A DNA stretch of 64,000 nt, taken from NCBI GenBank assembly GCA_020059915.1, contig JAGVBB010000007.1, positions 2,873 to 66,872 on the forward strand. Direction: 5' to 3'. The notes under the pieces were generated by a model, which was not told where the DNA came from, searched no databases, and worked only from the letters and a program-made list of their open reading frames with translations. This document shows positions 9,521 to 10,305 of this stretch, piece after piece; positions within the stretch are counted from its first letter, which is position 1; each line of letters begins with the position of its first letter. This stretch comes from Minisyncoccota bacterium. GTDB taxonomy: Bacteria; Patescibacteriota; Minisyncoccia; UBA6257; GWB1-50-10. The position numbers and the translations under genes were made by a program.

Positions 9521-9604
9521 GCCTGAGTGTCGGAATTGGTAGACGACCACGACTCAAAATCGTGTGGCCTCACGGCCGTGTGGGTTCGAGTCCCACCTCA
9601 GGCA
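9521..9604 (+). tRNA. tRNA-Leu (anticodon CAA), type II long variable arm
   Basis: acceptor GCCTGAG/CTCAGGC+A, anticodon stem CACGA/TCGTG with loop CTCAAAA, long variable arm, T-arm GTGGG TTCGAGT CCCAC; no encoded CCA. Confidence 0.85.
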
Positions 9605-9606
9605 CA
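9588..9606 (+). repeat. 19-nt direct repeat copy 1 (3' end of tRNA-Leu: GAGTCCCACCTCAGGCACA)
   Basis: exact 19/19 identity with 9799..9817. Confidence 0.9.
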
Positions 9607-9616
9607 TTTCAAAAAT

Positions 9617-9645
9617 AGAAAACGCATTAGCGTTTTTTATTTTTA
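9617..9645 (+). terminator. intrinsic terminator after tRNA-Leu
   Basis: AAAACGC ATTA GCGTTTT hairpin then T-run. Confidence 0.65.
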
Positions 9646-9798
9646 TGTGTCTGAGAGGAACGCCAACTGCTTGGCGTTCCGGTGGTACTCGAAGGGCGGA
9701 CCTGCCTACCGGCAGGCAGGGCGATATTTCGTCAGTAGACGAAATCGCGAGCCCAGGTTTTCAACAATTGTGAGCGACGGCGAACAATTAGTTGAAAA

Positions 9799-9817
9799 GA
9801 GTCCCACCTCAGGCACA
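9799..9817 (+). repeat. 19-nt direct repeat copy 2 (duplicate of tRNA-Leu 3' end), possible attR-like footprint
   Basis: exact 19/19 identity with 9588..9606; preceded at 9649..9655 by GTCTGAG that can pair with the CTCAGGC acceptor strand. Confidence 0.85.
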
Positions 9818-9853
9818 AATACAAAAACACTCTTCGTGAGTGTTTTTGTATTT
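9818..9853. terminator. long perfect palindrome / bidirectional terminator (AAATACAAAAACACTC TTCG GAGTGTTTTTGTATTT)
   Basis: about 16-bp perfect inverted repeat with T-runs on both strands immediately after repeat copy 2. Confidence 0.7.
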
Positions 9854-9858
9854 CTATC

Positions 9859-10305
9859 TTAGTGGGACGAGAAGGGAACTTTTGCGCACAAATGTGAAAA
9901 GCGAAGCGAAAGCAAAAGTCCCTGGCTCCGAAGGAGGAGTGAAAACGACGGGTGAGGAGGAGTCCCAATTTTTGCAAAATAAAAGATCCCCGTCTTACAC
10001 GGGGATCGAATGCGCACAGTTTTTGGTTGTCCAACGAAGTCTATTAAATAAAAGCGTTCGTTGGAATATGTCCTCTCCTTCTTTTTTGGCAATTCTTCAA
10101 AAAATATTGGAATCTCCAAAATTGGGATTTGTGGAGGTTTACATATAAGAAGTTCTTCTATGATACAGTTCAATTCCTTCTTTTCAAGATCTTCTTTTTT
10201 AATGTTTTGTACCACCTCAACAGGGATGCCCAATTTTGAACAAACCATACGAAGCATCGCCTCATCAACATGAGAAGAATCTTCTCCAATAATTATTACT
10301 TTCAA
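9859..10305 (-). CDS. hypothetical protein, probably only the N-terminal about 95 aa is real (possible gene fragment)
   Basis: N-terminal MKVIIIGEDSSHVDEAMLRMVCSKLGIPVEV looks protein-like; minus-strand intrinsic terminator (GATCCCCGTGTAAGACGGGGATC then TTTTATTTT) sits inside the ORF at 9971..10007 and the distal half is low-complexity. Confidence 0.3.
   Translation of the reverse strand: MKVIIIGEDSSHVDEAMLRMVCSKLGIPVEVVQNIKKEDLEKKELNCIIEELLICKPPQIPILEIPIFFEELPKKKERTYSNERFYLIDFVGQPKTVRIRSPCKTGIFYFAKIGTPPHPSFSLLLRSQGLLLSLRFSHLCAKVPFSSH

Follow-up and report, generated by a model that had tools for sequence, protein, structure and literature searches.

A family of structured modules with copied tRNA ends behind tRNA genes in Patescibacteria

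We analyzed a 64,000-nucleotide stretch (the window) of contig JAGVBB010000007.1 from a Minisyncoccota bacterium (GenBank assembly GCA_020059915.1). Window positions 9607–9817, immediately behind a tRNA-Leu(CAA) gene, are one unit of a family of structured modules that lie behind tRNA genes in Patescibacteria (Parcubacteria/Paceibacterota). A unit combines a terminator-like hairpin and a core of about 110 nt with two optional parts between them, first an antisense copy of the tRNA acceptor strand and trailer and then a hairpin (Px). The tRNA-sense strand is under structural selection. Units carry sense and antisense copies that are specific to the host tRNA, are present or absent precisely at these repeats, and occur in arrays. 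The element lies outside the known kinds against which it could be tested, and we infer its function and means of spread. The interpretation towards which we lean, at a little over even confidence, is a non-autonomous structured module templated on the tRNA end, folded on the tRNA-sense strand, and gained and lost by recombination between repeated tRNA ends.

The module in the window and its locus in relatives

The 19-mer GAGTCCCACCTCAGGCACA, from the end of tRNA-Leu(CAA), occurs in two exact copies, X1 and X2 (Table 1), and no other. The chance expectation is 0.01 matches, and two copies arose in none of 100 shuffles. An explanation by chance or by an assembly artefact would have nothing but the small size of the repeat in its favor, and the same architecture is found in dozens of independent assemblies; we give this explanation practically no weight.

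Besides the sense copies, the module holds the tRNA end in antisense. The reverse complement of the tRNA end is TGCCTGAGGTGGGACTCGAACCCAC, and the 5' side of the module reads TGTGTCTGAG (the anti-acceptor), then the Px hairpin, then GGTGGTACTCGAA (inverted repeat I4, 92% complementary). The ATGT before the anti-acceptor is the reverse complement of discriminator+3. Antisense and sense copies of the tRNA end are thus both carried, and the module is closed by pairing between them. The predicted fold of 9646–9820 has an energy of −89.4 kcal/mol (z = −8.3), with UGUGUCUGA/UCAGGCACA as the closing pair. The stem of Px is GGAACGCCAA/TTGGCGTTCC (9657–9666 with 9671–9680, fully complementary), and a further stem, ATTTCGTC/GACGAAAT, lies at 9726–9745. 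Palindrome 2, AAATACAAAAACACTC/GAGTGTTTTTGTATTT, has its arms at 9817–9832 and 9838–9853, immediately 3' of X2. GC content is 0.60 at 9650–9749, compared with 0.37 window-wide.

Much of this had been noticed in a sequence-only reading of the window, made before any database search. It had described the exact duplication of the tRNA-Leu(CAA) end, a GC-rich interior with three stems (a 10-bp stem, CCTGCC/GGCAGG and a third) and a 16-bp perfect palindrome right after the second copy, and all of these are present. The hairpin described as a terminator behind the tRNA is present too (hairpin 1, arms 9611–9625 and 9630–9644); a terminator scan scores it only on the minus strand (9636–9619). Two small corrections apply. 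The GTCTGAG segment starts at 9649, not 9650. Two copies of the tRNA end had been counted; a third, partial copy, GAGTCCCA at 9960–9967, closes a decayed second module.

A tRNA-Leu(CAA) gene divergent from parA is conserved in more than 40 Parcubacteria/Paceibacterota relatives, which were found with ParA. The neighborhood in the window is parA, parB, relA, groEL and tig; this gene set and the relatives assign the window to Parcubacteria/Paceibacterota. An exact-protein look-up gave no record of the window's ParA in the collection searched. Two relatives, L001 and L002 (ParA 87–89% identical), lack precisely 9607–9817, as established by local BLAST and direct reading. Their tRNA end is joined directly to a homologue of window 9799–9874 (88–92% identity), which makes their tRNA-Leu locus a precise empty site. 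A global MAFFT alignment of the window, L002 and L001 placed the L002 hairpin on hairpin 1; this was misleading, and local BLAST with direct reading identifies it as hairpin 2, that is, palindrome 2. No module is present at the tRNA-Leu locus of L018, L022, L012, L016 and L037. In L012 (OY970382), a free-standing open reading frame (ORF) of LAGLIDADG type (3073–3780, minus strand; Pfam LAGLIDADG_3, E = 8e-7) lies at the module's position, on the strand of tRNA-Leu(CAA) and 57 nt downstream of it; no tRNA-end repeat was detected with it.

A third relative, L003, whose ParA fragment is 100% identical to that of the window, has another mosaic: a different tRNA-end-derived piece followed by a module A without Px. 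The piece measures about 125 nt and separates the tRNA hairpin from the A-type core (L003 1200–1320, minus strand). It begins with GCCTGAGGTGGGCTCGAAC, the antisense of the tRNA end, and holds a T-arm-like GTTCGATTCCCCC, which suggests that other core types use the same tRNA-end-templated design. The L003 contig (AWOA01000139.1) is labelled Candidatus Calescibacterium nevadense and is probably a mis-binned Parcubacteria contig; it points to a hot spring as the origin of the window.

The window itself holds a small array, with the tRNA-proximal unit intact and the distal unit, module B, decayed. With filters off, module B matches the family model described below over its full length but weakly (10.3 bits, local E = 0.025). 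L001 and L002 carry a B-type module after the tRNA hairpin, again ending in GAGTCCCAC(CTCAGGCA), at 25–26 bits to the same model. A 148-aa ORF with no Pfam match (9859–10305, minus strand) crosses both module B and a strong minus-strand terminator (10007–9985); its last third is probably non-coding, with the real gene end likely near 10010.

Table 1. Features of the module array in the window
Feature	Position	Strand	Evidence
Host gene, tRNA-Leu(CAA)	9521–9605	+	ARAGORN; Rfam tRNA, 53.1 bits
X1, first 19-mer copy: 3' part of T-loop, 3' strand of T-stem, 3' strand of acceptor, discriminator, +1 nt	9588–9606	+	Exact match; repeat family D1
Complete repeat unit, 211 bp; absent at the same locus in L001 and L002	9607–9817	+	Locus comparison
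Hairpin 1, terminator-like shape (A-tract, stem, T-tract), within the 211-bp unit	9611–9644	.	Inverted repeat I2, 15-nt arms, 93% complementary
Anti-acceptor TGTGTCTGAG: reverse complement of tRNA acceptor 3' strand, discriminator and trailer; one G.U position	9646–9655	+	1 mismatch; pairs with 9808–9817 in the fold
Px hairpin, 10-bp stem, loop CUGC, between anti-acceptor and anti-T-arm	9657–9680	+	Inverted repeat I7, 100% complementary
Family core: P1 (9681–9691 with 9799–9808), junction GAA, P2 (9694–9697 with 9751–9754), tandem G.A, P3 hairpin (9721–9748), P4 hairpin (9758–9798) with loop GAGCGACGGCGA (9772–9783)	9681–9808	+	Covariance model R1
Window-only extra 10-bp hairpin CCTGCCTACC/GGCAGGCAGG (CCTGCC.../...GGCAGG) at the P2/P3 junction	9701–9720	+	Inverted repeat I13
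X2, second 19-mer copy: P1 3' strand and acceptor-strand copy	9799–9817	+	Exact match
Palindrome (hairpin) 2, terminator-like, 16-bp perfect arms; the post-tRNA hairpin of L001 and L002	9817–9853	.	Inverted repeat; relatives' sequences
Module B, second, decayed unit; anti-T GTGGGAC at 9862–9868; partial tRNA-end copy GAGTCCCA at 9960–9967	9861–9969	+	Weak covariance model match; inverted repeat I6, repeat family D1
Terminator of the minus-strand gene downstream; limits the module array on its outer side	9985–10007	-	Terminator scan; conserved in L003, L002 and L001

The three-way-junction family and its host tRNAs

Six seeds were chosen by parA synteny, with no motif: the window, L003, L023, L009, L020 and L032. 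Their alignment gives a three-way junction with 37 predicted pairs, of which 23 are compensatory. The covariance model R1 recovers the six seeds and L044; it also detects B-type modules in L001 and L002, at weak scores. Metagenome contigs were scanned with a pattern made from two conserved motifs, which returned at least 120 loci, and R1 confirmed about 60 of these. At E < 1e-8 with R1 the family has at least 71 members, a lower bound; the 65 that are not seeds are independent of them. The window core scores 88.8 bits over all 109 model positions (E from 6e-19 to 6e-22). R1 confirmed none of 15 loci on viral contigs that matched the pattern, which marks them as chance matches, and blastn found no match to the element in phage and plasmid collections.

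Structural selection is evident in the 71 aligned members. Standard pairs fill 93.1% of pair cells, and in 33 of the 37 pairs both sides have changed. Covariation scores 0.641; shuffled alignments give 0.173 (none of 500 reaches the observed value) and slid partners at most 0.11. Mismatches are asymmetric: G.U outnumbers A.C (67 to 34) and G.A outnumbers C.U (104 to 9), which identifies the folded strand as the tRNA-sense strand. The consensus contains two tandem G.A motifs, one at the P2/P3 junction and one flanking a 2-bp stem with its tetraloop in the P4 apex. The invariance of the P4 loop and of TYGAA..CGGA arises partly by construction, since the retrieval pattern demanded both; second copies, which fall outside the pattern selection, have a looser apex, GCGACGGC or GACG.

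Other parts of the window fold vary or are peculiar to it. An upstream hairpin comparable to Px is folded in about 26–29 of 48 units, by inspection. The 9701–9720 hairpin aligns as an insertion and is present in none of the 12 other alignment rows inspected. A kissing interaction of the Px loop (CUGC) with the P3 loop (AGCA/AGUA) is plausible in the window and was dropped, as the loops do not covary across units.

The members searched fall in no Rfam 15 family. ARAGORN and Rfam 15 call only the tRNA-Leu gene at this locus and nothing in 9606–9980, where Rfam gives no meaningful match at E up to 10. Sub-threshold overlaps with hairpin 2 are at chance level (AgrB at 23 bits, with a cutoff of 40; mir-B8; mir-4703; Plastid-psbA-3). 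Ten other members have no Rfam match that covers the element. Over this region, the whole window and the ten members, Rfam reports tRNAs and 16S rRNA only. We found no description of the family in the literature searched (open-access text only); PMC12045711 concerns TIGR-Tas, a different subject.

Members lie 13–97 nt downstream of tRNAs and on the same strand; in the window, the core begins 75 nt after tRNA-Leu(CAA). The hosts cover 15 identities (Leu, Gly, Glu, Val, Trp, Ser, Thr, Phe, Ala, Asn, Arg, Pro, Met, His and Tyr) and 26 anticodons. In each case the closing helix P1 pairs an antisense with a sense copy of the T-loop and the T-stem 3' strand of the unit's own host tRNA. Allowing at most one mismatch, the sense copy matches host positions 56–65 in 25 of 47 units, compared with 2.4% for non-host tRNAs, and the antisense copy matches host positions 53–65 in 28 of 47, compared with 2.5%. 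No permutation of 2000 reached the observed host match.

The sense copy often extends through the acceptor strand, and in the window this extension produces the 19-mer (19 of 19 nt exact). The direct repeat typically runs from T-loop C56 to the discriminator (10–23 nt) and sometimes into the trailer or the terminator. The copy in L167 reaches 17 nt beyond the tRNA, and that in L146 is at least 44 nt long and takes in the hairpin after the tRNA.

An antisense acceptor segment is present in 21 of 48 units, 19–34 nt (mostly 24–25) before P1 with Px in between, and three further segments lie at 0–5 nt. Thirteen of the 21 continue as an exact reverse complement of the discriminator and trailer. Together with the hairpin, the segment forms long near-perfect palindromes centered on the hairpin; that of L147, for instance, spans about 25 bp. 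We considered the anti-acceptor as a copy of the tRNA 5' strand and rejected this, as all four informative cases are the reverse complement of the 3' strand. Across 43 units, both acceptor copies occur in 7, one alone in 14 and the other alone in 13, and neither in 9. The sequence-only reading had proposed an acceptor-like closing helix, GTCTGAG with CTCAGGC. This helix is present in the window but is not conserved across the family, because the two acceptor copies are not retained together; P1 is conserved. As a defining feature it was rejected, with co-occurrence in 7 of 43 units compared with about 10 expected by chance.

These counts bear on whether the module is a tRNA-like, possibly aminoacylatable RNA, similar to a minihelix or to transfer-messenger RNA (tmRNA), with acceptor and T stems that copy the neighboring tRNA for the same enzymes. 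The window does close with a 7-bp acceptor-like helix followed by a helix of T-stem sequence, with Px in place of positions 8–48, and some copies end in CCA (e.g. L009, L020, L183 and L175). Against this, ARAGORN and Rfam call no tRNA or tmRNA there, the nucleotides of the T-loop are base-paired so that no T-loop exists, and the antisense also pairs the discriminator and trailer, which leaves no free NCCA end. With the complete acceptor helix not enriched, we consider an aminoacylatable RNA very improbable.

ARAGORN missed the tRNA-like 3' ends that precede some apparent orphans; these ends have long non-tRNA sequence before them and are possibly intron-bearing. In L140 (1–206), L106 (upstream of 1138–1247) and L094 (upstream of 3425), the element has no detectable tRNA before it. 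The upstream stretch in these three loci has repeated GAAGGGGTAA and GGAATGTAGGGGTAAAA motifs, and in L140 and L106 it ends in CCACC(A) and a hairpin. A different type of element or gene may be using the same site here.

Turnover, origin and possible role

Cores that share 85–92% identity are found at different tRNA types, with P1 helices only 25–65% identical; the core is therefore shared and the ends are re-matched to each host. Units stack in tandem arrays in the window (A then B), L147, L177, L165, L122 and L148, the last with at least five copies in 2.3 kb, and extra partial model matches indicate that L116 and L197 probably hold arrays as well. In element-bearing loci, 49 of 117 tRNAs have an element. 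A crude script for a hairpin plus T-run finds a terminator-like hairpin between tRNA and module in 25 of 48 units and after the module in only 7 of 48, so transcription of the module would need read-through. Other units start only 13–30 nt past the tRNA, some with no hairpin between.

No enzyme for mobility is encoded nearby. A Pfam scan of 58 ORFs (at least 110–130 aa) found no integrase, transposase, reverse transcriptase, homing nuclease or recombinase across the 64 kb, which extends the sequence-only reading's remark that no integrase is near. ORF clusters around 70 elements are housekeeping only (EF-G, ParA/ParB, CCA-adding enzyme, LeuRS and RelA).

The lead idea of that reading was that the direct repeat is attL/attR from tRNA-targeted integration. 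In the classical form of this account, an integrase-driven island or prophage would have entered the tRNA-Leu 3' end and later been deleted, leaving both att sites and about 190 bp. The exact 19-bp repeat of the tRNA 3' end flanking the insert, the replacement hairpin that the insert brings for the tRNA, and the precise empty site in relatives all fit this account. The wider data do not. There is no integrase in 64 kb, and the interior is a conserved, covarying family member instead of debris. A fixed attP is ruled out because the same core stands behind tRNAs of 15 identities, every one duplicating its own end and adding an inverted copy. A short crossover core also does not predict the L146 direct repeat, which spans a whole terminator. 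We regard classical att duplication as very unlikely and do not retain it. The fallback offered with it, a structured RNA that mimics tRNA or a small mobile module associated with tRNAs, comes close to the evidence: a miniature structured module is essentially right, and it generalizes to a large family.

The recombining, tRNA-end-templated module that we prefer would carry no enzyme of its own, and any expression would come from read-through past the tRNA gene. Recombination between repeated tRNA ends would add, remove and stack units. If the sequence between X1 and X2 were deleted, exactly the arrangement of L001 and L002 would result. An empty copy of the same tRNA gene shares homology with both the tRNA body and X2, so ordinary homologous recombination could transfer a unit. 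Template switching or gene conversion within the inverted and direct repeats would keep all three copies (tRNA end, antisense and sense) in step with the constrained tRNA. Matching by template switching is the mechanism of quasipalindrome correction, known from bacterial mutagenesis. It would explain why the hairpin palindrome reaches into the acceptor strand and trailer. The conserved core, with its two tandem G.A motifs and conserved P4 apex, is most likely the binding site of a putative trans-acting protein that would act in propagation or at the RNA level.

Several points weigh against our preferred interpretation. The metagenome members were retrieved by a pattern requiring the P4 loop and TYGAA..CGGA, and their alignment was fitted to the model. 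As the 34 A.C mismatches show, selection on the fold is not absolute. More than half of the units (25 of 48) sit behind a terminator-like hairpin and depend on read-through for transcription. We found no partner protein. Template switching, a putative route by which a core would take on the ends of a new tRNA type, is deduced from repeat geometry. Finally, strong conservation of the core is equally compatible with a host-beneficial RNA.

A related and more doubtful proposal is a self-targeting homing element of a new kind. Here the core would scaffold a folded RNA or single-stranded DNA, and the tRNA-matched strands would guide insertion at the T-loop (55/56), with propagation by a putative trans-acting protein or by host recombination alone. 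Such an element would resemble an intron-like insertion that brings its own spare 3' exon and terminator, so that the tRNA stays functional.

A host-beneficial non-coding RNA (ncRNA), co-transcribed with tRNAs, is a possibility that we hold tentatively, below even odds. It would be a processing, quality-control or regulatory ribonucleoprotein module in the 3' trailer, in which the antisense segment would sense or sequester the tRNA 3' half of read-through transcripts and the sense copy would release it; turnover would be incidental. The very strong covariation favoring the tRNA-sense strand, G.A motifs typical of RNA–protein sites, the fixed strand and distance relative to the tRNA, and the 85–92% identity of cores across different hosts are all consistent with such an RNA. 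Units that start 13–30 nt after the tRNA with no hairpin between are necessarily co-transcribed with it. The predicted minimum free energy structure of a read-through RNA (9521–9862; −166.5 kcal/mol, z = −12) also agrees, and in it the pairing is swapped: around hairpin 1, the tRNA's own 3' end is bound by the antisense segment, and the T and acceptor stems of the tRNA body are completed by X2. This thermodynamic prediction would amount to a tRNA with a giant T-loop insertion. The distribution of units points the other way. Just 49 of the 117 tRNAs in element-bearing loci have one, presence differs among close relatives, decayed copies and arrays accumulate, and most units stand behind a terminator-like hairpin. 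The acceptor copy and the anti-acceptor are also not co-retained (both in 7 units, one alone in 27).

If the module is an RNA, it would represent a widespread, overlooked class of structured RNA tied to tRNA transcription units, with at least 71 members, in a phylum whose RNA biology is poorly understood. If it is selfish DNA, it would colonize essential conserved genes without a recombinase by borrowing the end of the host gene as both inverted and direct repeat. Either way, island and prophage predictors receive false attL/attR signals from it, its long perfect palindromes beside tRNAs can disturb assembly, and it allows the concerted evolution of a gene with the repeats beside it to be tested.

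Three other features of the window were noted. Three clustered tRNAs lie at 25925–26236 on the minus strand; ARAGORN gives two of them as tRNA-??? with 2-nt anticodons (ta, gc), their Rfam scores are ordinary (48–67 bits), and they may have unusual anticodon-loop lengths. A complete 16S rRNA lies at 19995–21488 (minus strand) with no 23S or 5S in the 64 kb, and the rRNA genes appear to be unlinked. ParB (6403–7392, minus strand) has a proline-rich N-terminal extension of about 65 residues ahead of Pfam ParB_N.

Comparison with known systems

Several known RNAs can be set aside directly. ARAGORN and Rfam call no tRNA cloverleaf (anticodon arm, T-loop) in 9606–9980. ARAGORN finds no tmRNA in the window, and Rfam gives no match to one. 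For guide RNAs of IS200/IS605 or IscB (omega RNA, HEARO), there is no Rfam match and no TnpB or IscB ORF in the window. Hammerhead, integron attC and K-turn were compared by eye only, and none fits fully.

Group I introns found within Patescibacteria tRNA genes, which sit at position 35/36 in the anticodon loop and are self-splicing (PMC13011429), are like the module in phylum and in being structured RNA insertions tied to tRNA genes. They differ from it in that the module lies outside an intact tRNA and has no group I match in Rfam. With tRNA-linked or tRNA-like ncRNAs, such as the plant dicistronic tRNA–small nucleolar RNAs, the tRNA-like domain of tmRNA, YrlA and the 3' external transcribed spacer (3'ETS) of leuZ, the module shares an RNA placed in a tRNA unit or borrowing tRNA helices. 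Unlike these, it has no Rfam 15 match, and its helix is a literal copy of the 3' strand of the neighboring tRNA together with the antisense of that strand.

Integron attC sites, their arrays in clusters lacking integrases (CALIN) and the folded single-strand attP of CTX phage also conserve structure over sequence, with one strand folding, and stack beside a fixed site. The module differs from attC in its consensus, judged by inspection of the consensus only: the 5' motif is nTCGAAC, the 3' strand starts with CGA, and the R''/R' motifs RYYYAAC/GTTRRRY are absent. Unlike integron cassettes, units have no ORFs and no shown dependence on IntI or Xer, and the anchor is the tRNA T-loop instead of attI or dif.

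Like tRNA-targeted integrative elements, the module shows the tRNA 3' end directly repeated at its two junctions, a rebuilt tRNA end, a hairpin of its own and empty sites. Unlike them, it is 211 bp long with no integrase in the 64 kb, no cargo and no fixed site (at least 15 identities), and it adds an inverted tRNA-end copy and a conserved, covarying interior. Miniature inverted-repeat transposable elements (MITEs), repetitive extragenic palindromic sequences (REP/REPIN) and PATE resemble it in being short, non-coding, intergenic and hairpin-forming, in lying behind genes or terminators, and in being sometimes multi-copy with no enzyme in cis. In contrast to MITEs and REPINs, the ends of the module vary with the host tRNA, its repeats span 10 to more than 44 nt with no short target-site duplication, and its core is not a simple hairpin but a three-way junction with conserved loops.

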